Position numbers and translations under genes: made by a program
Assembly (NCBI RefSeq): GCF_963676685.1
Contig: NC_092345.1
Location: 4,526,001-4,590,000 of the forward strand
Origin: Mytilus edulis
Lineage: Eukaryota
DNA: 64,000 nt
Direction: 5' to 3'
Shown here: positions 4,199 through 60,793 of the stretch, one piece after another
Layout of the letters: each line of letters opens with the position of its first letter
Position numbering within the stretch: position 1 is the first letter of the stretch
Notes under the pieces: model-generated
Told to the model about the DNA's origin: nothing
Databases searched by the model: none
What the model saw: only the letters and a program-made list of their open reading frames with translations

Positions 4199-4343
4199 CT
4201 GCACATGATCAAAAGAACAGAAATAGTGATGTTATACAATTCAAATAAACAGTTACAAAATGATGTCACATTAATAAAGATTTTTTACAGCAGCATGGAC
4301 AATGACTTTGTATTTGTTTGGCTTTTTAACTGTTTTGATCTGA

Positions 4344-4387
4344 GCGTCACTGATGAGTCTTATGTAGACGAAACGCGCGTCTGGCAT
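4344..4387 (+). ncRNA. minimal type I hammerhead ribozyme motif
   Basis: GCGUCA-CUGAUGA-GUC(uuaugua)GAC-GAAA-CGCGCG-UC-UGGCAU: intact core, 3-bp stem II, palindromic stem III, GUC cleavage site. Confidence 0.85.
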
Positions 4388-7304: not shown

Positions 7305-7522
7305 CGTTATCAGAACAAAGAAAATTGCGTTTTGTGTCACATTCATCACTTTCGAATTCCCTCAAGTCTTTTGATAAACGAAAGCAACGGTATGTCTCCG
7401 TGTTCATTGGCTGGTCGATGCCCCATCTGTCATACGTAAGAAGGGTGCCGTCTGTCCAAAGAAAAGCGTCTTTTCCAATATCGTAATATAATCCGATGAA
7501 TATTTTTATCTCAAGTGATCCA
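7305..7522 (-). CDS. C-type lectin gene, exon 3 (C-terminal half of the lectin domain)
   Basis: Acceptor ttatag and donor ACG|GTAAG. 218 nt, phase 2 to 1. Translates IGSLEIKIFIGLYYDIGKDAFLWTDGTLLTYDRWGIDQPMNTETYRCFRLSKDLREFESDECDTKRNFLCSDN, with FIGL, WTDG and three conserved Cys. Confidence 0.9.
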
Positions 7523-10066
7523 CTATAATATAAAAAGAATTGGTGATACTTTAACTGTTTAGCATGGATATTCTATGTAAATTGATTTCACTATATATTG
7601 CATACTGATGTGATTTGCTTTTATGCCCCGTGGTCATAATGTTTTCTGGTCTGTGCGTTCGTCTGTCCGTCCGTGCGTCCCGCTTCAGGTTAAAGTTTTG
7701 ATTAAAAAGTTTTTGGTCGAGGTAGGTTTTGATGGAGTTGAAGTCAAATTAACTTGAAACTTAGTACACATGTTCCATATGATATGATCTTTCTACTTTC
7801 TAATTTTCACGCCAAATTAGAGATTTTCCCCCATTTTCACGGTCCACTGAACATAGAAAATGTTAGTGCAGATGGGGACACATTGTTGTTGTATTGTATT
7901 TTTGTCTTTTGTGTTGATGTTGTTGTTTTTGTTTGTGTGTTGTTATGTTGCTGTCCGATCGTCTAATACTTTAAACATCACCCATGGCATTTGATTTTCT
8001 ATTTCATTCATAAGCTTTCAATTTATAAAAAGACTGAGTCTGTGCTGACATTGATAAATGACTTCATGTTTAATAGAATATAACAGAAGATACCGAAGGG
8101 ACTATACAAATTGAACGTCGAAAAAAGTACTAGCGCTAATATAACTTAAAAAGAAACACGACTAAAAAACCAATAACAAACAACAAAACATAAATCAAAA
8201 ACTATTTTAGCAACACGAATCCCATGAAAAAACCTGAGAAGTCTTACCTACTTCATGATTGTTTGATTGAAAAACATACGTGTCCTTAACGGTTACATAA
8301 ACGTGAAGAATGAAAAAAATCAATATCATTTTAAATTGTCCATCACACCCCTTGATAACCTGCCTGCTTATGAAGTTGATACTGATTTTAAGTTATAAAT
8401 ATTTGGTGATTAAGTTATGAGTATTGAAGAAAATATTCAGATAGTTAAGGCTGTTAATGGGTAAAGTAGTAGTAGTTTCTCGCTATTCAATGGTTATGAA
8501 ACATATCAGGGTCGCAAGACAAAACTGATCGAAACACATCAACTCTCAGAGGAAAATAACGGATTAACGGAGACACTGAATCAAACAAAAACAAACATCA
8601 ACATACATCAACATACATCTAAACAAAATATAAAATCTGCTATATTCCAGATGTGGTACAAGACATTTTAAGAAAAAAAATGGTTGTTTGAACCTAGTTT
8701 TATGGCTAGCCAAACCTTCCACTTATAAATACATAATAAAAAAAAAATTTAGATGTATAGTGAAAACTTTTTTTAGTCTGAAACTAGCTGAACTTGCTTC
8801 TTTCTATATGTGTTTTTTTAAATTTTATATTGAAATTCTGGCCCAAACTGGCTGAAAAGTAGACAAAAGTCATTGATTGATTGATGGTTACTTAGCGTCA
8901 AATGGCAAAGATAAAATTGAAGAAAAAGATGGAAAAATAAAAGACAATCATTGATCTTTAAAAAAGCTAATAAATACTCCACTGTTCTATATCATTCAAA
9001 CTACCGTTTATTTGTTTGTCATTGGAACCACTATTTGTTTGTTTGTCTGTTATATTTTTAAAGTATATTCTTCATTGTTTTTTCTCAAACTTAAATGAAT
9101 CAATTTGGTTAACTCACTTGCGTTATTCCTGTAGTGCGATAAATTATTAAGTACGTGCATGATACCAATTATGTTGTTTTTGCAAAAAAAAATTACTTAT
9201 TAAAAAATGATATGTACCAGCTGACAGTTTCACGCTTCTTAATCAATATCGGAGTTGGTTACTTGAAATATTAGAAGATTTGATTTTTTTCAACTATTAG
9301 AAGCAATTTCCCGTCTGCAATGAGGTAGATTTAAATTGAAGAAATTTTGTATTTTCAGTATAACTCTGTGTGTGTGTTATTTTGTTTGAACGTAATATAT
9401 TGTGTTCCTTAGTTTAAATGAGAGGGTTAATTAGCTTTGCCTGTTGCCTGATCCATGCAGTTCTTTTTTTTTTTTAAATAAAATTAACTAAATAAAAAAA
9501 AAAAAAGAGGATTGTTTCGAGTGCTCTTAAATGCCAACGTTAATGGTAACCATTTGTTCCCTTCAGTTGATTTCCTTCAAAGCTGAACTAAACACATAGA
9601 AATACATGTTAATATTGAAATGAAATATACCAATGATACATTGCATATTCTGAAGCCAATTGAGACATAAACGATAGACGATTTACGTAGGCAATGCATT
9701 TAAATGAAATATTTTTAAAACTGTAATTAAACCAAACACTTATTTTCATTTTCAGTTTTCCTCGAGTGAGGATAATCGTTATAAGGTATGGCGAGTAATC
9801 TTGCTAAAACGATGGAAAATAAATCCGCATGCATTATTCGTTTCATCATTAAACAAAGATTCGATCAAATGTAACCAAACATGTTATCTGTTTGAACATT
9901 TAAACAGAAATTTATATTCTCAAAAATCAATGTATCAAATCCTCTTCTTTTGAAGAAGTTGAGGTAGGCTGGAATAACGGTGATTTCGACGTCAAATATG
10001 TAACAAATAAAGGCAACAGTAGTATATCGCTATTCGAAATTCATAAATCGATAGAGAAACAAAAAT

Positions 10067-11607: not shown

Positions 11608-12165
11608 AAATAAAGGCAACAGTAGTATAACGCTGTTCGAAATTCATAAATCGATTGAGAAAAAAAAACAAATCCGGGTAACAAATTAAAACTGAGGGAA
11701 ACACAAATATAAGAGGAACACTATGACACAACACAACATTAAAATGTAACACACACAGAAACGAACTTTAATATAACAATGGCAATTTTCATGACTAGGT
11801 ACAGGACATTTTAATAAAACAAAAATGGTGGGTTGAACCTGGTTTTGTGGCATGCCACACCGCTCGCTTTTATAGCAATGTTAAATATAACATTAAAATG
11901 ACAACATTACTTGAGAGGACTACAATACAAATAAATGGGAGAACATGTAGGACAGAGAAACACACGAATAATAGCTAACAAAAGCTACTAGGTTTAACAT
12001 TTAATACGCCAGACATGGGTTTCGTCCACACAAGACTAAACAGTGATGCTCTGATGAAAAAAGTTCGAAAGTCAAAACAAGTACCAAGTTGAAGAGCATT
12101 GAAGACCAATAATTCCAAAAGTTGTGCTCAATTCGGCTAAAGTTTTCTGCTTGGGAAAAGAATAT
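11608..12165 (-). mobile_element. interspersed repeat ending GAACAGCGGTATACTACTGTTGCCTTTATTT, with a decayed hammerhead at 12006-12049
   Basis: The same terminus recurs near 10005, 16893, 22836, 33484, 35262, 46592, 47611, 48893 and 63872. This long copy has a hammerhead-like GAC-GAAAC...GUC-UGGCGU with a mutated core. Confidence 0.7.
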
Positions 12166-12693
12166 CCCCAGAAAAGTGTTTACTATATACTGTATGAACT
12201 ATCAACTACAAAAACATTTGTTAATGACGACATTGTCAAATTTACTATCAACTACAAAGTTTTTCAGCTGGATCTGAATAATTGTCACATTATCCAAAAA
12301 ACATTTATAAAATACTACCAAAACAAATTAATTAAACAAAATCCCATTCATAAACTCAAATAAAAGAATATAGATGATAAATAAAACACAAACAAAAAAG
12401 ATTAATGTTAACTTGTATTTATTTTTACAAATTTTAAAGAAAATGCTAGACGTTTACAGACAAAGTTTTATTTAACAAAAAAAAAAGATATGGTGTTATT
12501 TACAAAAAACATAAAAGGATATGGAAGTAACTATAGGTCACAGTTCGGCGTTCAACAATGAGCAAAACCAATGTATAATAGTAAGATATAAATAGACAAT
12601 GCATGACAAATGAAAATAAAAAAATAATAAACAGGCTGCAACTAACTAAATGAAAAATCCTGACTTATAGAAATACAAATCTAATATACTTAC

Positions 12694-14256: not shown

Positions 14257-15240
14257 TCAGTATCGGTTGTGGCCACCGTTGTTTCGTAGAACAGCTTCTA
14301 ATCTTGTTCGCATTGATTGACAAAGGTTTCTTACTGTTCTGCGTGGGATGTTTTGCCGTTCCGGTTGTAGTTGTAATGCGATACCAAATTCAGCCGGGGT
14401 AGTCGGCGGATTCGGAAGAGAACGAATGCGTCTGCCTAACTCATTCCACATGTGTTGAATGGGATTTAAGTCTTCGAAAGAGCAGGTCATTCAAGAATAT
14501 CTACTCCATCCAAATTCAAAAAGTTTTGAGTCAATCTATCGGTATGCGCACGTTATCATTATCATGTTGGAATGTCAATTGATTTAACTGTCTATGACGT
14601 CGTAACTCTGGAACGACAACTGGCTGCAAAATTTCATCAATACAGCATCTAGCTGTTAATGTACCATTGACAATAACCAACCGCGTCCGAAAATTTGTGT
14701 TAATAGCACCCCATACCAATACACCTCCGCCATCAAATATGTATCAAAGTATATTCTTGTTCTTCCGTCTGCAAAACTGACATTGAACCGTGATTCATCG
14801 GAAAACACCAAGTGATTCCAGTTTCTCCGCTGCTGTTGCCTGGCTCATTGCTGTCGATTTCGTCTATGACGTGGAGTCAAAATCATTCCTTTATAGGGTC
14901 TCCTACAGCAAATTTGACGACGTCTAAGGATACGGGATACTGTTTTGGGATATATTGATCTGCCATGGTGTCCAATTAAATCGTTTGCGGTTGACGTCGA
15001 CGTCGTGAATCGATTTCGCAAATGACGTAGTCTAATGGCATTTTGTTGGCGTGGCGTCGTTACTTGTGGTTGGCCGGGTCTCGGACGATCTTTTGCTGTT
15101 CCTGTTTATCTGTGGCGTTGAAATAAACGACTGATTGTTGAGTTGCTTACATTAAAATATCTTGAAACAGCACGTTGACTCATTCCTGCCTGTAACATTC
15201 CGATAGCTTGATTACGTCTTTCATCACTGAGTCGCGGCAT
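14257..15240 (-). mobile_element. Tc1/mariner transposase pseudogene
   Basis: N-terminal MPRLSDERRNQAIGMLQAGMSQRAVSRYFNVSNSTISRL (HTH), then VFSDESRF, VWGAI, FQHDN and DLNPIQHMW motifs. Broken by stops and frameshifts. Confidence 0.92.
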
Positions 15241-17513
15241 TGCGAAATCCAGAGAAGTTAAATTGATTAAAAGAAGGCAAAGAAAGTAACGCATCTTTAA
15301 GATTAGAAAAAAAAACGGTTTGGATTGGGCAACAAGCCCTCTCCACAAAGCAATGTACACTATTTTACATTCAAACAAAGCAACACATACACAGACATAA
15401 TGACAACACATAATTAATTTTTACAAAATACCTCTTAGCTGAGTGGAATGAGAGGTTTAGCGCTATAACCAGGTTTAATCCAGCATTCTACATTTAAAAA
15501 TGCCTGTACCAAGTCAGGAATATGACAGTTTTTGTCCATTCGTTTTTTATGTGATTTGTTATTTGATTTTGCCATGTGATTATGGACTTTCCAAATTGAT
15601 TTTCCTCCGAGTTCAGTATTTTTGTGATTTTACTTTTTTCAACTGAGGTTAAAAGTATAACTATTTTAAGAATGCTTCAAATTGTAAACTAAGAATTTAT
15701 TTATTTTTTAAATAAAAAAAATAAAAAAATGAATTAAAGATGAAAAAAGTTCTCATATTCTAGGTAATAAACTCCAACATTGATTTGGAGGTCTCACAGT
15801 AAATTAAATGGTCTACAGTCAGCTATTCAAAATAATAAATTTAATAGCTCATTTATAAAAACAACATGTTTGATATCATGTACTTTTTTTTGCTAAATTG
15901 TTGCACCTGAAGAATAACGACAGTGAGTAATAACCAAATTGATACATTAAAGAATCATAATGATATAAAAAGAATTTAGAATGTTAATAAGAAGAAAAGA
16001 AAAAAGAGATTTAAGAAACTAAGGATATACAAATTGAATATAGAAATAATATAGAAATAAAGGTGCAGTTATTAGTTTTTATTTTTTATGATATTAATTT
16101 CAATGTACTGTCCTTTGATTTTTAACTTTTGTTTCAATTTTTAATTATTTTTCAGCTCGTTTGGGTCTAGGAGCTTAAATATAAAATATAATACAGACAT
16201 ACAAAGTAAAATTTTATTTTGTTTTGGACTATAAAGTACATTTCATTATACAAATCTCTCTGAATGTTTTAGGTATTCATGAGCAGCCATAACTATCTGC
16301 ACATTGTCTTCAATACTCATATCTTGATCATCAAAAAGTATTAACTTTAAATCAATATCAACTCCATTGGCAGACAGTTTATCAAGGAATGTGATCCTGT
16401 CAAAAGTGTATGATGGACAATCGAAAAAATAATGTTGATTGTCTTCACATTTATATAAACATTTAGGACAGGATTAGGTGGTTCTATTGTCGTCTGCATG
16501 GTGTTGTTTTTGTGTTTTGTTTTTGCGGTTGTGGTCTGTTTGGCAGCATTTCATGATTGGAGACGATCCAATAACGTTATTTCGTACGCATGCAATTTAA
16601 AAAGTGTTGTATGTTTATTTTATACTCCAATCCATTATTTGTAAAGCATATCTGTACATTTCAGTTGATGTGAACTCTTGAGAAGTTCTTCTTACAAAAA
16701 GGAAAAAAGACTCTGTTTTATGAAAGAGAAAGTCGATAAGTTTATTTATGTTTAAATGTACATCTTCATTTAACGAACCACAACCTAGTAAATACTTTTT
16801 AATGACCAGGGCAGCGTGTTTTGAAATGCCTTCATCACTTGTCAAGCGAATCCGTAATAGTACAAAAATGTCACAATTTTAATACGACATTAATAACGGC
16901 AGCAGTAGTTAACCGGTGTTCAAAAGTCATTAACCGATTGAGAGAAAACAAATCCGGGTTACAAACCTGAACCGTGCGTCACACATCAAATAGAACAGGA
17001 AAACAAAAAAACAACAGGAACACAGAATTTACATATGAAACATCTATTTTGCTAAATACAGATATAAGACCGTCAAACATTTCGCGTTTAAGTTGACACA
17101 AAGACATATTGTATTTGTCCACACAACTACGATGGTGACTGTAAAATGTATGTAGTGTTAATGTCAGTCGTGGTAAGTGTCTTGAGCACGAAATACTAAT
17201 ATCATTATAGTATCGAAAGAAAGTTGGCCTATGAAAAAAAAACTAAATCCGGAGTGTTATTAAGCTTACACACCCTGGTACTCTTTCTTTTGTTTTATCC
17301 GAATGTTTAAGGTCGTAGATCTTTATAAAGACACAAATGTCTAAACATCGCTGACATGTTCGTATCAACCATAGCATTCAGGAACGCAGTTAAGTGAAAT
17401 ATTCGAAAGCCAAGAAGGATTATGAACCTTAATCAGTTAACAAATAGGTCAAAATGATGTCATATGAGACACAACAGATATTGAATATTTATCGAATTCT
17501 GCTGAGTTTTAAA

Positions 17514-17960
17514 TAGAATGAAATTCAAAACAGTGTGGCTGTGGCCATTGATTGACACATTAAATTTATCCATTGACTGGGACAATTTAGGTGAACGTTT
17601 GTATGTAACGACCACTGCTCACTATGTACTTTTTAAAGACACTTAAACTATGGGGTCACCAAAGGTTCTCCACACCTTAATAAAGTAATTCGAAAAAATA
17701 ATCAGAAATAACACGATGTTTTGATTTATATCAATTATATAAATCAAAACCTAAAGGTTATTCCTGATTAATTTTTAGTATTATTTTATAATTAAAGGCG
17801 TTAAGAAACCTTTGGTGACCCCACAGTTTAAATGTCTATCGTAGGTACGTCGTGAACAGTGGTCGTTACAGACAAACGTTCACGTAAATTGTCCCAGTCA
17901 ATGGATGAATTTAATGTGTCAATCAATGGCCACAGCCATACTGTTTTGAATTTCATTCCA
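17514..17960. mobile_element. foldback/MITE element, palindromic over almost its whole length of about 447 bp
   Basis: Left arm gaatgaaattcaaaacagtgtggctgtggccattgattgacacattaaatt...ggggtcaccaaaggtt is mirrored on the right. The centre gttttgatttatat/atataaatcaaaac is also inverted. Confidence 0.9.
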
Positions 17961-18899
17961 TATACAACAAAATTATCAACAAAGATGATCAACAAAGATG
18001 ACAAAACATCGGAAATACTTTGATGAACAATGTTTGAAAATATTTAACAGTAAAGTCACGTTTACGTTTAATTGAGGGATGGTAATCGATTGACTTTTTT
18101 GTAGGACAAAAACAAAATTTAAATAGTTCAATGTTAAGTAGCAGCTCATGGTACTAGAAATACTTTTTTGAAATACGCAGTTTTGTAAATATACAGAATA
18201 CTTAGGCCTCACTTAACAGATCAATTTAGTAGGGCAAAGAATAATTTATTAGCGTTTTATGAACACAATAAACATTTCTTGACAAATCTTACGACCAAAA
18301 TCTACGACCGTGGTCTACATGTATAATGCAAAAACGTATTATTCAGGTGTCCTTTTATATATTATACATCACGCTTGATTGATAATAAAGAAATTACTGT
18401 TTATTGTAGACTACTTTATACGCGTGTCATACTTACCAAAAGGTCACATACAAAGACAAGTTATGTAAACAAGCATATTTTCATCATAATTTTTTTTTTA
18501 CTGCATACGATTGATGTCACTGACGAGTCTTATGAAGAAAAGATAACGCACGTCTGGTGAATCGCAGTTTAAGCCTAACTATATACGCTCAATGTTATAT
18601 TAGTAAAAACTGCAAAGAAACTTTAATGTCGTTATACATGCATAAAGCATGGGAACTATACCATAACAACAGCTACTACTACCGCTTCTACTAGCCTTTA
18701 TTTTACTACTCCTTCTACTATAATGAATTGATTATGATATAAGTATAATTATTATAAGAGGTAACATTATTTTAGCATCGTTATATCATTACATCTGTAT
18801 CTAATTACCGTTTTCTGATAATTAAAACTATAATTTTAGCAAATTATTAAAAAAAAAATATTATTTCGAAAAAAGGATTCGACTGCTACATGATACAGC

Positions 18900-20830
18900 T
18901 GCTGTAAGGAAGATATTTATGTGATTCAGCGAAGTTAAGAGCATTTGTCATTTGTGTATTCAAGCTCTTTAAAAACTATTATTTCCAATAATGAGGAAAA
19001 ACGTTAATTTTTTAAGGTAGAATTCGCCAATAAAGGTTTAGATGCGGTAAATATTAGCAATATTTTCCATCAAAAATCTATACAAAAAACCTGATTACTT
19101 CAAAAGTAAAGCTACATCTGTTATTTCTTATACTTACACCAAGTCTATTGAATCCAAGATTTTCAACCACAAGAGAGTTTTAGAGGCCTTTAACCTCAAA
19201 GATACGAAGTCCAAACCTCTGGATTGCTCCTGTGCATCGTCACAATACAATTATAGTCCAGCTGGTCATATTATTACTGGTGACCTTGGCATCGTTACGA
19301 ATGAACAACTAAGAGAGTTATTAGCCAAGGGACCAAAATATAGAATTCTCCAGCCCATCAACTGGAAAAAGAATTTCAAGTTACAGATGGATGCAGTTGA
19401 GGACTAAGCAAGAAAATGGGTAAAGCGCGAACCAGACCTGGACACTTTGTTCTGAATGGATCATGCATTCAGAGGCGCATACAAAAATTACGATGTAATA
19501 TGACTACAAAGGTTACTAGCCCTTTCAAGAATCCAGATGTTGTGGATGCTTTATCCTCTTTGCATGACAACTATGTCGTTGTTCCAGCAGATAAAGCCTC
19601 CAATAATATTGTCTACATATGTAAAAAACATTACTTGCAATGTCTCACAACAGAGGTTGGAAAAAATAAAACTACTGGTAACCCTACATATTCTTTAACA
19701 TCATTTACCAATGACGAAATTTTACAAAATCATAAATCTGTCCTTCTTTCTTTTGATATCAACATCAAAGAAAATGGAGAAAATTTACCTTCATTATACT
19801 GGATACCTAAATTACACAAAACTCCATATAAAGAACGATACATAGATGGGTTGTCAAAATTTTCGACTAAACATCTTTCTTAAGTTCTAACTACTATTCT
19901 TTCTACAGTTAAAGATGGGCTTCAAAAATATTGTGATGAATATATTCTACCAGTGGTGTTAACCAGATGTGGATTCTCAAAAATTCGAAAAATCTACTGC
20001 TTAATCTTCGATCACAATCTATGCAATTTTGCAGCAACATAACGTCTTTTGATTTTTCTACGCTATACACTACTATTACCCATGCTCAGTTGAAAGATCG
20101 ACTTCACCATCTCATATCAAAACAGAGCTTTTTCTATAAAAATGGGAATCGTAGATACTAATTTCTTGTTTTGGGTTACAATAATTCATTTTTTTCTGAA
20201 GAATCACACTGAATCTTCCAGAAAATGTACTGAAAATGATATTATCAAAATGCTGGACTTTTTGATCGACAATATATTTGTTGAATTTGGAGGATTTATA
20301 TTTCAACAGACAGTAGATATTCCAATGGGTACTAATTGTGCACCCCTGCTGGCGGATATGTTTTTGTACTCTTATGAAGCAGAATTCATTCAGAACCTTC
20401 TAAAAGACAAAAAGGAAAGGCACCTTGCTTAATTACTTTCCGATATATTGATGATGTTCTATCTTTGAATAACCCATATTTCAGCCAATACTTACATCTC
20501 ATCTATCCCAGGCCAGCGAACTTGAAATTAAGGATACTACTGATACTATAAGGACTGCTTCATACCTTGATCCTTTTCTCAATATTTACGCAGATGGACG
20601 ACTTCACAGAAAAATCTACGATAAACGGGACGATTTCAACTTCCTAATTATCAATTTCCCATTTCTCAGCAGTAACATACCCTCTGCCCCTTCGTATCGT
20701 GTTTACATATCACAATTGATACGTTATTCTCGTGTTTGTTTACACTATACGGACTTCATATACAGGAGTGTGCTCCTTGCACAGTTAACCAAACTTTTTG
20801 ATGAGATGCGATCAAGACTGTCGACACTAC
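18900..20830 (+). mobile_element. Penelope-like element reverse transcriptase, decayed
   Basis: Frameshifted fragments with VVPADKASNN, LYWIPKLHK, SFDFSTLYT, IPMGTNCAPLLAD, FRYIDD (about 20437) and YDKRDDFNF...SNIP. No GIY-YIG endonuclease was seen. Confidence 0.88.
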
Positions 20831-21571: not shown

Positions 21572-21964
21572 TGTAAAGGCCAATTTCTTGTTTAGAATTG
21601 TAACAAATTTCGTTTTGCAAATTTATTGATTTTTGATGAAACTAACCTAGGTACATTGGTTATTTTCCCCATCATATATATTCCCTGAAAATTAAGAAAT
21701 GGGTCACGACAATTGTGTAAAACCTAGATGTTACAATGATTGTTTTCTATATTTTCACACCTATGTTTATATTTTTATGAATGATTTGGACATTGTTATT
21801 GGTATAAATCTTATGATGATTGCATTTTCTTTGTAGTCAGTCTCATCTTACTGTTTATACTTTGGATCCAGTCACTTCACTGTAACTTGGAATATTTTGG
21901 AATAAACTTCAGGCGTGAATTGTGTTATATTCATTACATGTACGACTGATATTAGTGGGAAATA
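21572..21964 (+). repeat. 5' LTR of the BEL element (393 bp)
   Basis: Near-identical to 25587-26178 except for an internal gap of about 200 bp. Confidence 0.88.
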
Positions 21965-24900
21965 TTCATTGACTTATTTGACGAATATGAGCAAGTCACA
22001 CAAGGAAGAACCCAGTCTATTAATGGAATTTGAAAGTGAGGACACAGAAAAGGTTGACCGCAAAATAGATCAAAATATAATTTTGAAAAGTGTGGACACA
22101 GAGTTAGGAGAATTTGTACAACCAGAATTAAATATGGATAAGAACTTTGAAACAAATAAAACAGATGAACAGGAAGAACAGAAGACCTATGAGGCGATAG
22201 GCGGAGCTAGACCAAGAAAGTATACCGATAAAGGTAAAAAATTTAGTGAAGAACAAATAACCAAATCCTATGATGGATTGAAAAGATTAAGTGAAAAAAT
22301 AATAAGACTGATTTCTGATAACGAAACATTCGAGACAATAAGATTGCGGTATGGAAATTGGATGCAGTAATATGAACAATTTCAAGTACGAATCAACAGC
22401 GACAACATGGACAAAAGGTTTCAAATGTATGTGATGTGACAAAAAATGCACATACTGAGATGCGCTGTTCCTATTGTGAAGGTACACATGTTTTAGACAA
22501 ATGTAAACGATTTATAGCTCGTCCACGTGAAGACCGAATCGCTTACTTGAAATCTAAGGGATATTGTTTTGGTTGTCTTAAGAAAGGCCATATGAGTAAT
22601 AAATGCAATAGGAGACTCAAATGCTCATGTATTTGGTTATGATGTTATATTTGTTATTCTCGTGGGATTTTGTCTGTTGCTTGGTCCGTTTCTGTGTGTG
22701 TTACATTGTAGTGTTGTGTCGTTGTTCTCCTCTTATATTCAATGTGTTTCCCTAAGTTTTAGTTTGTTACCCCGATTTTGTTTTTTGTCCATGGATTTAT
22801 GAGTTTGAACATCGGTATACTACTATTGCCTTTATTTATTCATATCCAACATATAATTCATTTTGATAAACTGAATGCCCTTGAGCAGGAAGATTACATG
22901 AAAGTTCATACTACAAGAGATACTTTTCTAATGAACAGTCAATTCAAGATACAATAATATCTCAATGCAAATCCAGTGAAAGTGCAGGCAAGTGTTCATG
23001 GGAGATAAGTAAGAAGTGCGGGCAGCTCAGCAGTATCTTCAAAACGACTTGAAGTCGAGGGAAAAAGGATTGAGCTTGAGGCTAAAAGACAAGCAATGAA
23101 ACGTAAGCGAGAACTTGAAATGGCCAAAATGACATTACAGTTAGATGAAGATGATCTTCAAATGCAAACTGATATAGCTGTAGCTGATGCAAAGGCTATC
23201 ATATACGACAAGTTCGAAAAGGGTGAAATTGACCATGTTGAAACTCCGAAAGTAAAATTTGGAAATGTTGAATTGAAATCAAAACCTTTGCAAAGTACAG
23301 TACAGGCAGCTATCGAAACAGCAATTTTAAATCCGATGGCAAAAATATTTCAACCAGTTAAAAAGAAATCAGATATTTTAAAGGAAACAAGTAACTTAGA
23401 TTATGTGAATCTATCGTCCGTCAACATGATCAAAAACACTTCTAAACTTCCGAAACAAAATGTTCATGAATCTTATGGACCAACCCATATCGACAATACA
23501 ACATCTATGCCGATTCAAAGTTTGACGATAAATCCGAACATTTCTGCAGAAACAGCTTTTCAAAGTATGGTCCAACATTTGAGAAAACCTACGCCTGAAA
23601 TAAGGAAATTTAATGGAAACCCATTGGAATATAGGGAGTTTTTAAGACAATTTGAATCAAAGGTTGTTTTGAACTGTGAACAAGATGATGAGAAGATGAA
23701 TTACCTCGAGCAGCTGACATTTGGAGAAGCGCATAAGGTAGTATCTAGTTACAGTCACCTGCCAGGCGATAGAGCATATAAGGCATCAATGCGTCATCTT
23801 GAAGAGCGATATGGTGATACAGACGTGATGGCCTCAGCCTTTATTAAAAAAGCATAGGATTGGCCAAATATTAAATCAGGAGATATTCAATCTTTGGATG
23901 AATTAGCATTGTTTTTGGTTGAATGTCAGTATGGCACGGAGAGTATTGAAGCCGGACGCGTTTTAGAGTACTCTGAAAATATGAAACGTCTGATGTCAAA
24001 ATTGCCCTTCCATATGCATGATCGCTGGAGAAATGTTGTTTTTCGTGTAAAGGATTCACATAGAACAGTTAAATTTAATGACTTTGTGAGCTTTGTAAAA
24101 GCAGAAGCCAAGAAAGCTACAGATCCGACATATGGCAACATCGCCATGAATTATTCAAATTCTAGAAGTACGAATCAACAGCGACAACATGGACAAAAGG
24201 TTTCAAATGGAAAAGAAATGTCCTCTCAAGATTTCTTCAAAACTAAGCAAACTGGATCCATTCGTCGACAAAGATGGATTGCTTAGAGTTGGTGGACGAT
24301 TGGAGCGATCGGATATTTCGTACGAAATAAAACACCCTATCATCTTGCCTAAGGACTTACCGATATCAAGACTTATTATTGAGAACATTCATCGTTCAAT
24401 TGAACATTTAGGAAAAAATTCAATCTTAGCCATTCTTAGACAAAAATATTGGATATTAGGAGCTAATACTATTATTGAAGGCTTAGTGTCTAGATGCGTC
24501 AGATGTAAGAAATATCAAGGAACATGCGCAAAACAGAAAATGGCAAATCTTCCGAAAGAAAGACTTCAGGCTGATGATCCGCCTTTCACAATAATTGGAA
24601 TAGATTTCTTTGGACCCTTTGAGGTAAAGCAAGGAAGGAGTGTAGTTAAAAAATATGGTGTGATTTTCACATGCCTGACTATTAGGGCGATACACCTCGA
24701 ATTGGCATATTCATTAGACACTGACTCTTGCATAAATGCTATAAGGAGATTTATTTCGAGAAGAGGACAGACAATGGAACAAACTTTGTTGGTTCAGAAA
24801 AGGAACTAGGAGAAGAAATAAAAAGATGGAACTTTAATCAAATACAGGAATTCATGATTCAGAAACGCATTCAGTGGGGGTTTAATCCGCCGTCTGCATC

Positions 24901-25586
24901 ACACTTTGGAGGTGTATGGGAACGCCTTATTAGATCAGTGCGTAAGGTATTCTATTCAGTCATGCATGAACAGAACATTCGCCTCACTGATGAAGGACTA
25001 ATGACTCTATTCTGTGAAGTAGAAAGTATTCTTAATGGACGTCCGATCACAGAAGCGTCAGATAGTATTACAGACTTAAATGTATTGACTCCGAATCACT
25101 TGATACTTCAACGTCCGAGTGAAAGCTTTTCACCTGGTGTGTTCTCTAAGACCGACAGCTATGTCAGCGATGGAGACAAATTCAGTATCTCGCTGATCTA
25201 TTTTGGACTTGATGGCGAAAGGAATACTTACCTCTATTGCAGTGCAGAACAAAATGGACAAAACCGACAAGAAATATGCAAGTAGGAGACATAGTTCTCA
25301 TTTCCGAAAATGCACCGAGAAATTCGTGGAACATGGCTCGAGTGGTTGAACTAATCAAAGACAAGGACAATGTTGTTAGAATTGTCAAAGTGAAAACCGC
25401 AAATTCTGTGTTGATGAGACCAATTGCGAAACTGTGCCTTCTTGTAAAAGTTGACTAAAAAAACCACAGCTGCCACCAAACTCGTGTTCATATGATAGAC
25501 ATTTGAAGAACATTTATGATATAATTGTCTTTTGATTTATTCTTGGTAATTGTGTTCTAGATAAGAACCCAATTTAGGGGCTGTTA

Positions 25587-26178
25587 TGTAAAGGCCAATT
25601 TCTTGTTTAGAATTGTAACAAATTTCGTTTTGCAAATTTATTGATTTTTGATGAATCTAACCTAGGTACATTGGACACTTTCCCCATCATATATATTCCC
25701 TGAAAATTGAGAAATGGGTCACGACAATTTTGAGCCCTTTAATTTTGAATAATATAGAAATATCAGAGTCTAACAAATAAGGTATGTTGATTTTTACATT
25801 TATTATATGCATTTTGTGATAATATGAAAGTAATTTAACTATTTCAATGCCGTTAATGTGAACTTGAGACAATGATAAATATTATCAATCTGATAATTGT
25901 TTATTTTCGAAAATACGAACTTTATTCATTACTTGTGTAAAACCTAGATGTTACAATGATTGTTTTCTATATTTTCACACCTATGTTTATATTTTTATGA
26001 ATGATTTGAACATTGTTATTGGTATAAATCTTATGATGATTTCATTTTCTTTGTAGTCAATCTCATCTTACTGTTTATACTGTGGATCCAGTCACTTCAC
26101 TGTAACTTGGAATATTTTGGAATAAACTTGAGGTGTCAATTGTGTTATATTCATTACGACTGATATTAGTAGGAAATA
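25587..26178 (+). repeat. 3' LTR of the BEL element (592 bp)
   Basis: Starts TGTAAAGGCC after a purine-tract remnant aatttagggg and matches the 5' LTR. Confidence 0.88.
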
Positions 26179-26577
26179 GTTTTTCTTTACCTTATTAACC
26201 TCCTTTTCCTTGTACGTCCATTATTGTAAACTGACCTTAAAATATTTGACAAGAATCGTCGTCTAATAAGTTTTGTCAAAAAGGAAAAGTTGTTGACCTT
26301 AGATAGATCTGGCAATAAGTTTTAGGTCATATAGCTCGTCAGCTGGTTAGGTTCTTGTACATTTTTGTTTTTTAAATATTTAACTTTGAGTATTTCTGAT
26401 GATTATAAATCTTTTTAAAAAAATTTGTCAACTCTAACAGGCGAAGTGACTTTAATTGGATTTGGTAAGTATTTTAACTGTTTTGATTTTTATTAGTCTG
26501 TGGTTTTTAAATGCTCGACAATGGGTGTTCTTGATGGTGTTAAATAGTTATCAAAAGTACCAGGATTATAATTTTAT

Positions 26578-26621
26578 ACGCCAGACGCGCGTTTCGTCTA
26601 CATAAGACTCATCAGTGACGC
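26578..26621 (-). ncRNA. minimal type I hammerhead ribozyme motif (best-preserved copy)
   Basis: Minus strand reads GCGUCA CUGAUGA GUCuuauguaGAC GAAA CGCGCG UC UGGCGU. Stem I GCGUCA/UGGCGU pairs fully, including G-U pairs. Confidence 0.88.
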
Positions 26622-27410
26622 TCAGATCAAAATAGTTAAATCCAGACTTTCTTTAAACTCCTTGATCTAATTAGATGGCTTTTGCTAGCATTTGAGGTCC
26701 TTTTTAGTCATATATTATGACTGTTACATTTCTAATATATCTTGCTTAATATTTGAATTTTCTACTGAAGTTAAATCCAAAGAATAACTTGGATGTAGAA
26801 AATAAAAGTTTTGTCTTTTTCTTTTTTAGTCATGGCATTTCAGTTTATTTTCGACTTTGAGTTTGAATGTCCTTTTGGTATCTTTCGCCTTTCTTTTTGC
26901 ATGAAAGCATTAAAGTCCCTTAGACAACGTTTACCTTCGATTCATTTGGTTATTATTTTAGGTCCTTTTTGGTCATATAGGCCTTCACTGTTTTGTTTAT
27001 TTAAAATACTTGAGTTTTCATGATAAAAATATTGCAGAAAAGGGGCTTCGGAAGTATTCAATTTACAAAATGTTTTCATTTTTACAGTTAGATTTGGTAC
27101 AACGTTTTTGAATTCAAACCTCAACTTCCTATTTTATTTCCAGATGTATTGATCAGAGCGCCACTGTTATATGTAACTTGGATGCTTTTGAATCTCTTCT
27201 CTGAAATATGAGCATATGGAAACTCAACGCTAAGGATTTATAAAAAACAAATGAAACTGCCAAAAAGTACATAGCTAAACTTATCTTAGAAAAAGACAAA
27301 CAAACAATAGTATATGTCTTCATCAGAACGCATTACATCGAATATCTTAAAAGCAAGGATGTATAAGAACCGAAACATTTCAAGATGAATATGACCATAG
27401 AGGACCTTCA

Positions 27411-28000
27411 AATGCTCTTCAACTTTGTGCTTGTTTGGCTTCATAACTATTTTGATCTGAGCGTCTCTGATGAGTCTTATGCACACGAAACGCGCGTCTG
27501 GCGTATTAAATTATATTCTTGGTACCTTTGATAACTATTTAAACAACTGAGTAGATGCCACTGCTAGTGGACGTTTCGTTCCCGATGGTAACACCAGCCT
27601 AGTAGTCAGACTTCGGTGTTGACATGAATATCAATTATTTGGCCTTTTTAACTTTTTTAAATTCGAGCGTCACTGATGAGTCTTTTGTGACGAAAAACGC
27701 GTCTGGCGTATAATAAATTTAGTCCTGGTATCTATGATGAGTTAATTTATATGGTCATTTTTATAAATTTCCTGTATCAAAACTTTAAATTTTTCGAAAA
27801 ACTAAGGATTTTCTTATTCCAGGAATAGATCACCTTAGCCCTATTTAGCACAACTTTCTGGAATGTTTTGTTCTTAATGCTCTTCAACTTTGTGCTTGTT
27901 TGGCTTCATAACTATTTTGATCTGAGAGTCCCTGATGAGACTTATGTAGATGAAACGCGCGTCTGGAGTATTAAATTATAATCTTGGTATTTTTGACTAT
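27411..28000 (+). mobile_element. retrozyme-like tandem hammerhead element (motifs at 27461-27504, 27667-27709, 27926-27969)
   Basis: Direct repeat 27411-27540 versus 27876-28000, with GUC sites 465 nt apart. A related second-family hammerhead fragment of about 112 bp is nested at about 27638-27749. Confidence 0.82.
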
Positions 28001-33059: not shown

Positions 33060-34159
33060 TTAAAGTTTCAAAAAATGAACTATGGTTGCAGTACTATAAG
33101 TAGGTGATAATCCGACTTAAGTTGATGACATACTTAACAGTGACTTGAGCAAATATATGATTGATCTCAGAAATTGTTTGTACAATTGTAGATAATTTTT
33201 AGGGAAAATCTATAAGTTGAACTTTAAATTTTTAATAAAAAATCTTATTTAAAGAGTTAACATTCTAGAAAAATTAATGTTAATGTTTATTTGAAATAAG
33301 AAAGAAAGTGAAATCATTCATCGTTATATTATAGTTCGTTCCTGTGTGTATTACATTTTAATGTTGTGTTTTTGTTTTGCTCTTATATTTGATGCGATCC
33401 CTCAGTTTTAGTTTGTAACCCGGATTTGTTGTTATTTCTCAATCGATATATGAATTTCGAACAGTGGTATACTGTTGCCTTTATTGATAAATACAAAAAA
33501 TTAAAGTAAAAGATATCGCGAAAAATACCAGAAGAACTTGTTAATAATCTGGATAGTTCTTTCCTGTAACACTAAAATTTTGGAAAACGATACCTTTTTA
33601 AAAGACAATGTGACTCTTTTTTTCGTACCATTTCTTTAATCTAAAATATTACAAATATTCTTAACAGTAAATGCATGAATACAAATACTATAGCGTTGGC
33701 GTACACTATTGGAATGTTGACAGTGTTCCCAGATAGAAGGGTGTACATCTTAATCCATCAAAAGAAAATTTATTTTGTAAGTTTCATCATACCTTTGCAA
33801 ATTATCTAGGATAATATTATACTTGCACCTCCCTATATTGTCTTATGACCAACCAAATACAAGATTGAAATCTTATCCTGTAAAATCGTTTCTTATAACG
33901 TCTATTAATACTAAATTATATTAATGTATGTACATGTACTATATACAGTATTTACACCAATAAATAGAGAGAAACAAGAAGCTGGTGTTAATTAGATAAA
34001 TGAACAATGTTACAATATTTTCAATTATTTTAACCAATGTAGCTTTTTCTTTGAACAAAAAAATTAAGTTCATATTTTAATGAAGACATCAGTTGTGGAG
34101 AATTTGTCTAAAGATGATATTGTTTTAATTTGTCAATTATTTAAAAACGTGATTTTATT

Positions 34160-34464: not shown

Positions 34465-35489
34465 CTGAAATTTAAGGAAAAAAACAATAAAACAAATATC
34501 ATATTTATATTACTGAGACATGTGTGGTAAAATTGTTATTGCTAAGATTTTCCCAGTAACTTCACATTTTTATTCTGCTGTTTTTAAAACCACTGGATAA
34601 ATTTATTTATAACAATTAATTAAACTTCATTAGTGATGTTGTTGAACGATTGTCTGTATAAAATTGAGAATGGATATTGGGACTGTGTCAAAGAGGCAAC
34701 AAACCGACCAAAGAGCAGACAACAACAACAAACAATTATTTATCATCATATGTTTATACCAAATCCCCTATTTAGGTAGTTGAATGAAAGGTTAGGCCTT
34801 TTATAATAACCTACATTGTTTGAGAGTTGTTAAAAGCTGCAAGCTTTCCTGTAGTTGCTTACATCTAATTGATGTGTATGTGGTTGATAGTTGTCTCATT
34901 GAAAATCGTATCACAGCTTCCTTTTTAATACTAATGCATGTTTGATAATGCCTTACGTTCAGGGGAAAATAAGAACTATGTATTAAGGACAATATTATGT
35001 AATAAATGCAATATTAAAATACACAAATATGTTTTAGACAAATACACCTGAGTCGTACTAGCTAACATTGTAATAATCAGCTAGACATTCAATAAACCTT
35101 TACTATTTTTTTCTAAATTTCTTGTTTCCCCGTTGTTTGATATAACAGAGGAATGCGCCCCCTCTTTTTTTGACCCCGGTACTTGAGGAACAATCAATCA
35201 AATATTTAAGGAAATTTTATATTTATGACTTTTGAGCAGCGGTATACTACTGTTGTCTTTATTTGTATATCCAAAGTGTTCTTCTTTATATGGCACTGCT
35301 CTTTACATTGTTTTACGAAATTCGATGAAAATTTAAAACATCGGATACATCAACTGTATACATGAAGAGTAAATCATGTATGTGTTTACGCGGGAAAATA
35401 AAGATAAGTGAAGTGACCTTTTAGAAGAGCGGCGGCGCTATCATTTTATCAGGATTATATTACCGTAGCTGTATTGGTATAAATCTAGA

Positions 35490-35722
35490 AGTTTAAGGAT
35501 CTCAATACTTTTTAACTTCCTACTTTATTTGGTCTTTTTCTTTTTTATTTATCGAACTTCACTGATGAGTTTTATTGTGAATGAAACACAGGTAATGCGT
35601 TCAACATTATTTTGGCCTTCTTTTCTTATGTTAATCAAACGTCACTGATGAGTATTTTGTGGACGAAACGTAGGTCTCTCGTACAGCATTTTTGTTAACC
35701 CTGGTATCTATGATGAATTTGT
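35490..35722 (+). repeat. two decayed hammerhead-bearing fragments (second family) in gene A intron 2
   Basis: cactgatgag...atgaaac at about 35560 and gtcactgatgag...ggacgaaacg at about 35641, ending cctggtatctatgatgaattt as at 27724-27743. Confidence 0.6.
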
Positions 35723-35774
35723 TAATCGCGATAGAACTTTCATGAACAATTTTTACCAGATAAGATATACTTAC

Positions 35775-40125: not shown

Positions 40126-41372
40126 TTAAAAATCGTCTGTATCTGAATTTTCATCTCGATAAAGCTGTATACAATTTAAAGTTGGTACAGGCAGAGCTGT
40201 TCGTGATGGTTGTTGTTTGTCTGAGGAAATATCATCATCCTTGTCCTCATTATCTTCAAAATGAACAGATTTTCTAGCTGTTAAAGATCCATGACTTTGA
40301 TCGTTGTTAAATTCATTCATGCCTTGGTCCATATTTCTGGTTATCTCATTCTTTTCGTCCATTTCTTCGCTTGTTGTTGATGAGTCGTCTTCGCTCTCGT
40401 AAACTGATTGGTCATGCTTATCGGATGTTACAGATATAGGTGTCGAACATGCTGAACGACCTGACGAACACATTTCATCGTCCTTAAAGAATTCACAATT
40501 CTGTATGGATGGTGAAACGGAAAGTGATGGCGCTTTAATATCAGTCGTATCTTGGTCGGATGCTACAGGTTCACGAGTCAGACATGCATGATCCGGAGAA
40601 TCAAGTTCTTTTTCTTCTATTTCTGTTTCCTGAACATATGGCAGGACGTGGGTTCGAGGTGTTTCTGATAGATTTTCTGGTAGTGGTGTAACTGGTTGTA
40701 AATATCGATCTGAATCTGCTGGCAATAACTCATAAAAGTCATCATCAAAATCAGGAGTAAAGCCTTCATTGGTGAAGTATAAAGATGTTGCAGGTTTAAG
40801 CGGAACTAGAGTACGAGAAGGTTTTAGGTTAATCTCTTCCAATGCCTCGTCATTTTCTAGTTCAGCTATAGCTTCATCGGCTTCCAGCTCTAAATCGATC
40901 AATGTAGGTTCCATCAGAATCGGGGTAGGTTTGTATGGAAGAAGTTTAGGCGATGTACTAGATTCTTCCTCAATAATTTCATTGACACTAGGCTCGCTAG
41001 GTTCACCATGTCTGACGTGTTCACAGAATTTAGTTGTGTCAGACCAAGCAAACGAGTCTTCATGGCGATAGGATTGTGGTGGAGTGTTAGCGGAGAAAGG
41101 TTTGTTTTTCATATTTCGGTTATTATATTTCATTCCGTCCGACCAGGCAAATGTATCCTCGTGCTGATAGGATTGTGGTGGAATGTTTGGTGAGAAGGGT
41201 TTCTTTTTGATATTCAAATCTTTAGCTTTCATTCCATCCAATATATAAAACGGACAGAGAATAAGCGCAATAAATACAGAAATCACTCCAATAATACCAC
41301 TGTATCCCAGGCTAGAATTGTATTCTACCTTGCTCTGAAGAATCAGGAGATGGGCTATTGCAACAAAAGTTC
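40126..41372 (-). CDS. claudin/PMP22-like gene B, exon 3 (TM4 plus long acidic low-complexity tail); protein 533 aa
   Basis: Acceptor ttccag, in frame with ORF 40126..41415. TM4 ends ILCPFYILD. Total CDS 1602 nt. Confidence 0.88.
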
Positions 41373-41880
41373 CTGGAATAAAGGGAAGAGAAGTAAACCG
41401 AGAGGAAGGACACAAACAAAATTCAGTTGTATAAAGATTTTTGGTGAATTTAGAATGTTATTTTTGTATTGATTTGTAGGGGTGGGGTAAAAATAGTGAT
41501 GGTGTAAAATTGTATAAATAGTATCAATCATAATCATATCATATATAATAAAAAAAATATTGAAGGAAAACCCATCATATATACCAGATTGCTTTAAGAT
41601 ATATAGATTTAATCGAATAGTAAAAAATATATCTGGATGAAACGTTTGGTTTTTTTTACCTACGAGAAAATCATAAAATTGAAAATGTCTTTTTGAAATG
41701 ATCTACTTTTTTTTAACGTTGTAGTAAAGAATCTAAAACTGCTGCGATTACCATTATTTTCATTTATTAGAAAATAAAACATATTTACAATTAATTTTCT
41801 TTTGTCGCATACATTTGATTATGATTACAAAACCAATAGTATGTTTGTCCGTTAAAGTGTGGTTGTTAGACAGATCTTAC

Positions 41881-42036: not shown

Positions 42037-42588
42037 CTGAAATATTAAAATGATTACTTTTGATATAAAAAAAAAGCGGATTTGTGTTGTGTTATGTAAC
42101 TTAGAATACTAAATGCCAGTACATTAAGTAATTTTACTGCTTTACTCCCCTGCATGTGTAAGAATGATCAATTTATACTATAATATATGTATATCGCTCA
42201 AAAAGTCAAAACTTGGAATTGATGAAACCAAATGGAGTGAAGAGTCTTCATTCTATATTTTGAACTTTCTTCAGCAACTTTAGATATTTCCATTTAGGTT
42301 TATTGTAATGTCATTCCTTGCTGTTCAGTAATGATGACATCAACGTCGGTACATATCACAATTTATATCAAATGTAATCTGTAACCAGACTGAGTTTAAT
42401 TTACTGGCTTTGTAATTGCTGTTAAGCATAAACAGTATATACAAAATTCACGATGTAATCATTGAGATTTTTTTCTTTGTTTTTGTGTCCCCTTTTTTCT
42501 GACAGTTGTGAATATATAGCTTCATACATTGGACCCTTATAAACTATGTCTCATCCTAGTTTACCAGTGCAAATTATGTAAGCCATAC

Positions 42589-42787
42589 CTTTTGCTACCA
42601 AAGCACTACAACCATTTTGACCATCTTCCAGACAAATTTGAAAGAGACCTGATGTTCTCTTTACGATACCATCAGAATACACAATCCATGCAGGTGTAGC
42701 AAAACATGCCACGTATAAAATAAAGCCGACATATGTAGCAAATAATTGGATAGTCTTAGGCCTCAGTAAACGTTTATTACACTCCAT
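42589..42787 (-). CDS. claudin/PMP22-like tetraspan gene B, exon 1
   Basis: ATG at 42787, 199 nt, donor AAG|GTATGG. Contains PAWIVYSDG...SGLFQICLEDGQNGC. Confidence 0.88.
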
Positions 42788-43450
42788 AATATAGCTTCTA
42801 ATAAAATATATATTTTCTTCCGGTATTAAAATAAAGTAAATACGTACTATATAAGGGTCTGGATAAGAGAGGGACCTTCAGTTGCTTATTCTTTAATAAT
42901 TTAGATCATTTTCTCTACTCTTTATTTATTTTGTCTATTATTCTCTATTTTGCACACATTTATTCTCTATTCTTTATTTTATGTTGTTTGTTTTTATGCT
43001 CTATTCTGCATATTTTGAAAATAATTCTCTATTATGTAAACCCCATCCAGACCCTCTTACTTGTGCATTCATAGGAAAATGACTTTGTAATAGGTTTTGT
43101 TTTAAACAATAGTATTAATTATAAATATTTCTTTATTTGTATAGAAAATTACGTGAAATTATTATTATATTGCAAATTAACGGTTATAAGTTACAACAAT
43201 AGTGAATCAACTTCTTTTTAGAATTTTTTTTTATTTTTAAACTATAAACATTTTCAAACTCTTAACTTCCGCTCAGTACCATAGAAATAATTTGTAATGA
43301 AAATGCCCTTGTGCAATTTAAAGAAAGTCAACAAATATTTTGGTTTGGAAGTTTTGCATTACCTATAGAAACCTTATAACAACGGGATATCACATCCTAA
43401 TTTGTAGTAGGATTTTTTGTTGAAAAATCTTTGAATATTGTCTCCATTGA

Positions 43451-47400: not shown

Positions 47401-49038
47401 GTCACAAACCAATCAACAGTATTTGACCTGATGTTTTTTTCTACAAACCAAGGATCTATAAAATATGTCTTATATATCTTAGTATAGGTGGGATGAAAAT
47501 AACAGAGAATATCATTAACTCAGTGAAAAATACAACTCCCTGACGAGGGTGATATTCAAAAGATATAGGAAGATGTGGTGTGAGTGCCAATGAGATTTAA
47601 AACATGAATTATAAAGGCAACAGTAGTATACCGCTGTTCAAAACTCGTAAATCGATGGAAAAAACAAAATCGGGGTAACAAACTAAAACTGAGGGAAACT
47701 CATTAAATATAAAAGGAGAACAACGACACAACATTAAAATGTAACACACACAAAACGGACTAAACAGTAGACAAAATCCGATGAGAATAACAAATATAAC
47801 ATTAAAACCAAATACATGAATTTGGGATAGAAAAGTACCGTGACACGTTTTATAGTAATGTGATAATAATTATCAGTGTCAGCGACACATATATGAAGTG
47901 ATAGAAATCTGGATTATATCTTTCTGAGGCCTTATCAATTTCCATGTATCACGTGATTTGTTCTGTTTCGTTATAAAGTAAACTATTTGTAATAGAGCCA
48001 TCAAACTAATAAAACCTGGACCATTGATAGAGCTAATCCTACCAGTAAAGAAACAAGTCAGGTACGAGAAAACCAAAAGGCATACCTTAAATCATTAACA
48101 AAACTAATTGAATTATACATATATGATATCTTATACAACATTCACATCCATACACATCCCTCTTGCGACCAATATATGTTATGTTTTCATGCAAACATAT
48201 GTTAAACAACGTATTTATTGTATTGACATTACATGACTTATTATGTGTAATTCATATAGTAAGTTGGTTCATACTAGTTTCTAGGCAGTACACAATTAAC
48301 TTACATTCGAAGCATTACTAGTAAATAAATGTTATGACAGCTACTTTGTTTCTGTTCATTTAAAAAAGCATGTTTTTTAAGTATATTATACAATTATTAG
48401 TTGTTAGTATTTATTCTATATTACCATGATACATGTAGCAACCAAAAATAAACTAAAAGTTACTCCTATAACTGACGTCATATGAAAATGTAAATGCTTT
48501 GTTTACTTGATCATTTACAAATTAATTCCCCAAAAAATTCATTCATATTTGCCTAATTAAGAAACATGGCATCCTGGCCTTTATATATAAGAAACCCTGG
48601 TTGTGAGTCAAAACGGTTATATCTATAAAAAAAATTAATAATAATAATAATAATAAGCTGTAGCCATTTGACAGAGAACATAAAACCAGGTTAAATCCAC
48701 CATTTTCTACATAAGAAAATGCCTGTACCGAGTCAAGAAGATGACAGTTGTTGTTCATGCGTATGCTGTGTTTGAGCGTTTTATTTTGCCATTTGATTAG
48801 GGTCTTCCCGTTCATTATTTTTCCCCGGAGTTCAGTATTTTTGTAATTTTACTTTTTAGTAGTTTGATACTTTCTTTTATATTTCAGAGTATAAACAAAG
48901 GCAACAGTAGTATACCGCTGTTCAAAAGTCATACATTGATTGAGATTCGTCATAACTATGTTTAAATGTTTTCTTGTCGAAATGCGGTGTATCTGAAGCA
49001 GTATAATTAGTGCCATTAATGTTAGTAATATACTTGAC

Positions 49039-60573: not shown

Positions 60574-60793
60574 GCATGTTCATACTACATTGCAACACAA
60601 ATTAGTCACTATCGTAGTGAAGACAATAGACTTGCTACAATGCTCTTTTTTTTATTTCCATCTTACTAATTAATATGTTTACTGTAAACTGCCATAATGC
60701 TGAATAACCCACTATACAGTTTGCCTATATACATATTGTCTATAGAGGAAGCCTCCATCTGAAGGTGTCAATATAATGGCAATCTCTTCGAAA

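Follow-up and report, generated by a model that had tools for sequence, protein, structure and literature searches.

A mutated hammerhead retrozyme copy in Mytilus edulis and the likely copying of its family by a Naiad reverse transcriptase

Within a 64,000-nt stretch of the Mytilus edulis genome (the window), positions 27411-28000 hold what we interpret as a mutated and likely inactive copy of a 355-nt hammerhead-bearing repeat, interrupted by a nested piece of a related family. The family as a whole is likely copied by the reverse transcriptase (RT) of Naiads, a clade of Penelope-like elements; we give this overall reading a probability of roughly 75%. Retrozymes of this type are already known, and the family-level link to Naiads adds a testable helper and signal. 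It speaks to a question that is open in the literature, namely the identity of the enzyme that copies retrozymes in animals and of the signal from which it does so. The candidate named here is a protein encoded by intact elements of this genome, together with an RNA element of 58 nt and a predicted point at which copying starts. If this is true, Naiads, which are dominant in many invertebrate genomes, gain a defined RT start signal; the question also bears on whether a Penelope-like RT can roll on circular RNA. The locus itself is a passenger and the interest lies in the anatomy of its family.

The locus is a single family A retrozyme insertion on the forward strand with a nested family B piece (Table 1). 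The first-pass annotation, made from the sequence alone, had noticed direct repeats that each carry a type I hammerhead with a GUC site. Indeed, the two cleavage positions (C17) lie 465 nt apart within a 121-nt direct repeat (27411-27531 and 27876-27996, 92% identity, E 1.6e-45). The fragment of about 112 bp that it assigned to a sister family is also there, and is 93% like family B units, with best genomic matches of 91-96%. Its flanks had been matched to positions 35520-35720, where a B-like copy does occur (35606-35719), but this copy is older and only 74% alike, against the 93% of the family B units. Removal of the insert leaves 353 nt, as had been estimated; the remainder is collinear with the 355-nt genomic unit apart from two 1-nt gaps, and shows 87-90% identity to the first unit of every array compared (10 of 10). 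The locus contains no ORF of 90 aa or more and no LTR, the unit is AT-rich (GC below 50%), and a search for a target-site duplication around the family A insertion gave none that was evident.

Table 1. Features of the retrozyme locus and related elements in the window.
Feature	Position	Strand	Remarks
Family A insertion	27411..28000	+	Starts 87 nt 5' of first cleavage site; one full unit; family's fixed 3' end
Left type I hammerhead	27461..27504	+	C17 at 27498; core intact
Bulged hairpin	27546..27603	+	Common to retrozymes B, C and the 5' end of two Naiad families
CATGAA	27623..27628	+	Context matches likely start codon 3' of the hairpin in both Naiad families
Nested 5'-truncated family B piece	27639..27750	+	112 nt; ends at B's fixed 3' end
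Middle (family B) hammerhead	27667..27709	+	C17 at 27703
Right type I hammerhead	27926..27969	+	C17 at 27963
3' tail	27964..28000	+	End equivalent to family +40; internal 3-nt deletion
Short separate family A copy	26540..26638	-	Unmutated hammerhead, 33 bits; same fixed 3' end
Broken Naiad (Penelope-like) ORF fragment	18984..20784	+	91.6% to intact 1007-aa element; outside the insertion
Naiad-1 3' end fragments	11608-12167 (-), 22642-22839, 33320-33490, 47611-47863 (-), others		Same stop position

The catalytic cores of all three hammerheads in the locus still read CUGAUGA...GAAA...UC; however, their stems are broken. The left one has three changes, of which 27466 A>T breaks the core-adjacent stem I pair and 27484 G>C one stem II pair. 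The middle one has lost 1 nt from loop II and carries two changes that break one stem III pair and the palindrome, and the right one has five changes, including the core-adjacent stem I pair and two in stem II (C11.1>U). When the hammerhead models of Rfam were run, as had been proposed, the left motif was reported (24.4 bits, E 0.17, cut-off 34) but the middle and right ones were not at E<=1. The hairpin of this copy is also damaged (4 of 23 pairs broken, z -0.6). The CATGAA that follows it is likely a vestige of the Naiad start-codon context described below.

In the genome searched (1.37 Gb, 14 large contigs), the exact 41-nt core pattern has 6,496 matches for family A and 2,332 for family B, against 0 for the reversed controls, thus these hammerhead families are not a product of chance. 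A search with the locus itself gave 141 matches from the best 40 of 9,327 candidates, covering query positions 1-239 and 337-553 and skipping the middle. The first-pass annotation had staked its case on arrays with a period of about 350 nt elsewhere in the genome. Such arrays exist: among the 30 loci that we retrieved, many are tandem repeats with a 354-358-nt period, running to as many as 7.4 units. Its main inference thus stands, that the locus is a retrozyme copy with hammerheads, now in decay. The units measure 355 nt in family A and 362 nt in family B, which is 83% like A. Rfam Hammerhead_1 was found in all six units of a young array (L010), copies in young arrays scoring 30.6-33 bits. 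Stem III of the young copies has two base pairs and a tetraloop, which is not the form of the minimal Penelope-like hammerheads that require dimers, where stem III is missing or is a single pair, and the earlier remark on minimal hammerheads working as dimers is not needed here. Consistent with this, the majority of type I motifs in invertebrates are described as cleaving in monomeric form (PMC7761336) and a cloned mussel repeat cleaves at about 0.1/min (PMC7229834). The fold of a whole young unit as a circle was not clearly better than 40 shuffles (z -1.07).

The insertions share a 3' end. We surveyed, for each family, the 30 exact core matches that come first along contig C1; 6 of those for A and 2 of those for B were merged with another match in the same insertion. 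Twenty of 24 family A insertions end at +39 to +45 from C17 and 26 of 28 family B insertions at +43 to +52, the 5' ends being scattered in both; pooled, 46 of the 52 insertions stop 39-52 nt beyond the cleavage site, immediately 5' of a hairpin of about 58 nt. Both the family A copy of the window and its nested B piece end at the fixed points of their families. Target duplications of at least 6 nt were found for 3 of 52 insertions and for 13 of 207 shuffled flank pairs, no excess over the control. Terminal tails chosen irrespective of the hammerhead (20 among 30 loci) span C17 by at least 17 nt in 18 cases; the remaining two start at -3 and +9, and none starts exactly at the cleavage site. Since the tails cross this site, the usual template would be a circle or an uncleaved multimer, and not a cleaved linear monomer. 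The window contains other 5'-truncated retrozyme copies (1073-1278, 4305-4422 and 35449-35723), the last of which holds a pair of older B-like pieces whose hammerheads are separated by 83 nt.

The family is expressed. In four RNA runs (raw-read runs bearing the same coded species label, which may come from other animals), one young unit collected 3,114-10,053 reads per run. In two runs, family RNA made up 5,736 of about 8.7 million and 6,476 of about 8.3 million records and covered the whole unit. A strand bias of about 5-fold was seen over the hairpin region in two apparently stranded runs; assuming the usual stranded protocol, the RNA in excess is the hammerhead strand. As in metazoan non-LTR retrozymes, the units carry a type I hammerhead, the tandem units fall within 150-450 bp and are noncoding, and, on that assumption, the ribozyme strand is transcribed. 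Read ends showed no pile-up at the cleavage site in these runs. Head-to-tail junction reads had been proposed as a sign of circular RNA, and hundreds of such joints are present in the RNA reads; they fit arrays as well as circles, since the genomic arrays carry the identical junction, and so they do not serve as proof.

The first-pass annotation had also pointed to a relic of a Penelope-like RT about 7 kb away. The relic is real, lies 6.6 kb from the locus and belongs to the Naiad clade; its distance, however, means nothing because it is broken and is one of many (18,426 first-look candidates, some with open frames of about 1,000 aa). What is informative is its clade and the hairpin in common, rather than its proximity. 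Pfam searches with the four ORF pieces of the relic returned nothing telling, and it was placed by comparison with intact copies. The 1007-aa ORF of its intact relative, which we call Naiad-1, contains GIY-YIG (138-226) and RVT_1 (712-856, the RT under the Pfam cut-off) domains, and CxC and DKA motifs were read in the translation. GIY-YIG, CxC and DKA define Naiads (PMC8557442), and here GIY-YIG is N-terminal to the RT.

All 12 Naiad-1 copies sampled, among those with the longest frames, carry in their 3' UTR a block of about 240-280 nt that is about 71% like the retrozyme and ends at the fixed end of the retrozyme. Its hammerhead core is broken in varying ways, none of the 12 keeping it. Where the sequence 5' of the ORF was reached, Naiad-1 begins with a homolog of retrozyme positions +43 to +110, just before the likely ATG. 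Folding predicts the bulged hairpin of about 58 nt, built of the same helices, in Naiad-1 as well as in families A and B (z -2.5 to -2.9). Its core pattern, with 10,070 exact matches genome-wide, led to a second Naiad family and to a third retrozyme family. Naiad-2, found as a 3,370-nt tandem, has 1000-aa frames that are 59-70% identical to Naiad-1 at the amino acid level and a 3' UTR without the hammerhead block. In both Naiad families the hairpin precedes the likely ATG of an ORF of about 1000 aa with GIY-YIG before the RT. Retrozyme family C (350 nt; L245-L247, L227 and L232) has the same hairpin and end position, and its hammerhead shows compensatory changes in stems I, II and III. Two further loci (L237 and L259) may represent a fourth family that bears the hairpin, its hammerhead-like motif being of another kind.

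In six related sequences (A, B, C, Naiad-1, Naiad-2 and the window copy), 7 of the 23 hairpin pairs have changed on both sides, a count that none of 500 shuffles equalled and that compares with 0-2 in slid controls. We take this covariation as support and not as proof, since the set is small and related and since taking the structure from the fold of one member inflates both controls. A pseudoknot through the ACCA bulge was considered and rejected, as it is not kept in Naiad-2, and a search of Rfam with the hairpin gave nothing at E<=10. In the window, nine 3' fragments of Naiad-1 stop short of the hairpin position by 3-9 nt, with the same offset as in family A. The predicted role of the hairpin is that of a signal for RT binding and initiation.

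Arrays similar to those of the retrozymes are also formed by hammerhead-free derivatives of Naiad-1. One array (L280, G000:C2:95561297-95564100) consists of 279-nt units that join the hairpin, the ORF start and the last 72 nt of the 3' UTR. These mini-Naiads are 98% identical to Naiad-1 and have no hammerhead core; the array contains 10 exact matches to the hairpin, is truncated at its 5' end and closes with the Naiad 3' end. Array formation thus does not require the ribozyme. Two more such arrays (L277 and L281), likewise derived by internal deletion, have spacings of 201 nt and 129-137 nt. Full-length Naiads themselves were found in tandems of 3.4-4.75 kb.

We favour the view that the 3' UTR block of Naiad-1 is a captured piece of retrozyme, although the direction of transfer is uncertain, because the block has the shape of a 5'-truncated retrozyme and Naiad-2 lacks it. 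A search for Naiads with an intact hammerhead of the usual type I order gave nine matches in a Naiad context, of which eight have GAG for GAAA and one is a retrozyme A; among 510 pattern matches, 20 of 20 loci examined look like retrozyme copies and not like hammerhead-intact Naiads. The ribozyme may have been inactivated differently across Naiad-1 subfamilies because cleavage would sever the ORF from the start signal. In two copies (L113 and L117) the 3' UTR looks like a stack of blocks, in which a decayed block of retrozyme, doubled in part in L113, is followed by matches to D13, D15, D16 and D6, which are common repeats of the window.

All together, Naiad RT is the likely helper of the retrozymes, as judged from sequence comparison: the hairpin and the fixed end are common to both, and mini-Naiads form similar arrays. 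A non-autonomous partner of Naiads would have a cis-signal and a terminus in common with its helper, and the retrozyme has the two. The first-pass annotation had named Penelope-like RT as the presumed helper, which thus appears likely, with the clade of the relic now given as Naiad and the hairpin as common to Naiads. The hairpin could, however, reflect ancestry without present use. Among the Penelope-like clades of this genome, the comparison covers the Naiads. We lean slightly towards a broader interpretation, that mussel retrozymes are mini-Naiads: the hairpin would fix the start of the Naiad RT, and every short RNA that bears it would be copied into tandem arrays with or without a ribozyme; the hammerhead would be an add-on that makes stable circular templates, and Naiad-1 would have captured and inactivated a piece of retrozyme.

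The following scheme may be proposed. Arrays would be transcribed on the hammerhead strand, the ribozyme would excise monomers and a host ligase would close them into circles, as published for Mytilus galloprovincialis. The Naiad protein would bind the hairpin and nick AT-rich DNA, and copying would start about 42 nt beyond the cleavage site, a few nucleotides 5' of the hairpin. Naiad RT would then proceed through the tail, over the ligated cleavage site and on around the template, dropping off after a variable length; the window copy corresponds to about 1.3 rounds. A short family B copy would later have been inserted at TTAT in the window copy by the same route. The proposed binding and internal start rest on analogy with Poseidon, whose RT begins at an internal site 3' of the hammerhead and depends on RNA lying beyond that site (PMC11167929). 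The balance tips somewhat towards a circular template, which is not required by the scheme.

The same helper might instead use an uncleaved linear multimer or a re-used template, the hammerhead serving RNA turnover or stability and being dispensable for copying. This is the alternative that we take most seriously, although we consider it the less probable course. The hammerhead-free mini-Naiads with their similarly shaped arrays (279, 201 and 129-137 nt) and the tandems of full Naiads fit it well, and ribozyme-dead Poseidon RNA was inserted as well as the wild type (PMC11167929). The compensatory stem changes between A/B and C, however, argue that cleavage is under selection, and circles are the dominant RNA form in mussel tissues (PMC7229834). 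Moreover, units are 98.8% identical within arrays (46 pairs) against 94.2% between arrays (45 pairs; 10/11 loci), which fits one template read repeatedly, though local amplification fits too.

It is unlikely, in our opinion, that the retrozyme is of old Naiad origin and is now moved by a hammerhead-bearing Penelope, Neptune or LINE, with the hairpin as a relic or in another role. In vertebrates, retrozymes do match pLTRs from Penelope-like clades other than Naiad (10.64898/2026.07.22.740005), canonical hammerheads were reported to be missing from Naiads (PMC8557442), and none of the 12 intact Naiad-1 copies has an intact core in the homologous block. Nevertheless, the hairpin is conserved in three retrozyme and two Naiad families, young copies end at the same place relative to it, and intact Naiad ORFs are present in the genome.

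Family A is likely the retrozyme published from M. galloprovincialis, the two being matched by size, hammerhead type and copy number alone. In that species about 5,000 hammerheads, repeats of about 350-390 bp and abundant circles were described (Cervera and de la Pena 2020, PMC7229834). Type I hammerheads, repeat size, thousands of copies, related families, low GC and expression are alike in the two mussels, and M. galloprovincialis retrozymes are described without LTR, PBS or PPT, LTRs being likewise absent here. In contrast, we find at least three families (355, 362 and 350 nt) where two hammerhead families were described, and the window copy is decayed and interrupted. Target-site duplications do not exceed the control here; they are optional in the published retrozymes, being longer than 4 bp "when present" (PMC7229834). 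The fixed 3' end and the Naiad hairpin do not figure in the accessible part of that description, and a review mentions no conserved motif in metazoan retrozymes that would indicate the helper (PMC7761336). Our intact elements resemble published Naiads (Craig et al. 2021, PMC8557442) in their N-terminal GIY-YIG, CxC, DKA and RT, tandem and 5'-truncated copies and lack of discernible target-site duplications. In the portion of that paper on which we rely, two Mytilus Naiads are listed without comment on a hammerhead, whereas Naiad-1 carries a decayed hammerhead block in its 3' UTR. The retrozyme has the same 5' hairpin and end position as Naiads, but lacks an ORF and has a hammerhead of working type.

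Vertebrate retrozymes have likewise been presented as non-autonomous Penelope-like derivatives, arising from pLTRs (Li et al. 2026, 10.64898/2026.07.22.740005). As far as that account goes, the sequence link was made in Xenopus only, no mollusc was sampled, Naiad was found only in a coral, and no cis-signal or fixed end comparable to ours was described. A mechanistic parallel is the Poseidon element PAc of Anolis (Frangieh et al. 2024, PMC11167929), where an internal RT start 3' of the hammerhead defines the genomic 3' ends, RNA beyond the start is needed and the targets are AT-rich, as would apply here. PAc differs in that it is autonomous, belongs to a clade with a C-terminal endonuclease and has its start site inside the ORF. 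Among the papers listed by our literature search, which ran outside subscription journals and Repbase, none links retrozymes to the Naiad hairpin.

The nested B piece looks younger than its host and thus points to a later insertion, because it is closer to its family (best match 96%) than the host A copy is to its own (91%), among the matches listed. Its origin by a template switch within one reverse transcription event is improbable. The 5' start of the piece does resemble the stretch of host immediately downstream, with 11 of 15 nt alike, a score that only 2 of 362 B positions equal, and at a second locus (L017, G000:C11:38254610-38254914) B is joined to A at the same 3' nucleotide. The age difference argues against a switch, however, as does the exact resumption of the host sequence at the break point. 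Moreover, the second locus was found with a chimeric query, by which recurrence is overcounted, and it is 82% like the window with almost no rare variants in common, so that the two look independent and a common origin of these chimeras is unsupported. The two junctions of B into A involve the same nucleotide and different B 5' ends. An insertion hot spot was also rejected, B being at the site in only 2 of 77 distinct contexts among the loci retrieved, both from chimeric queries. TTAT stands on either side of the piece (27635-27638 and 27747-27750); a 15-nt duplication initially considered there was dropped in favour of this 4-nt microhomology, duplications not being above control.

The window copy is mutated and most likely dead. 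An active retrozyme has two intact hammerheads flanking a unit, and here stems are broken in both. Each chimeric junction occurs once in the genome (left with one mismatch allowed, right exact), indicating that the composite was never copied, and an amplified A/B composite family was rejected on the same count. In the four RNA runs, unique flanks of the locus had zero depth, and 94-100% of the 83-176 reads per run that match the locus at 97% likeness continue into unlike sequence; as the runs may come from other animals, the lack of locus reads is weak evidence of inactivity. Activity of the locus as a new composite retrozyme, with release of a 465-nt RNA or of pieces of 205 and 260 nt, is thus very hard to credit, the three preserved cores being set against broken stems in every hammerhead, a damaged hairpin, the uncopied composite, the missing reads and a 465-nt circle that folds no better than shuffles (z 0.21).

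The window holds further repeats and gene fragments. An LTR retrotransposon relic at 21713-26157, which we take to be of the Bel/Pao type, has 225-nt direct repeats (97%) and DUF1759 and integrase zinc-binding domains. Long inverted repeats, MITE-like, lie at 17506-17968 and at 60474-60576, the latter giving spurious Rfam microRNA matches, and minisatellites of 31 nt and about 41 nt at 60701-61227 and 54179-55541. A transposase-like helix-turn-helix fragment (15109-15420, reverse strand), a C-type lectin exon (7267-7572, reverse strand) and exons that encode claudin-like membrane proteins, which have long tails of low complexity (42551-42877, 40126-41457 and, on the reverse strand, 49218-50696) were also recognized.
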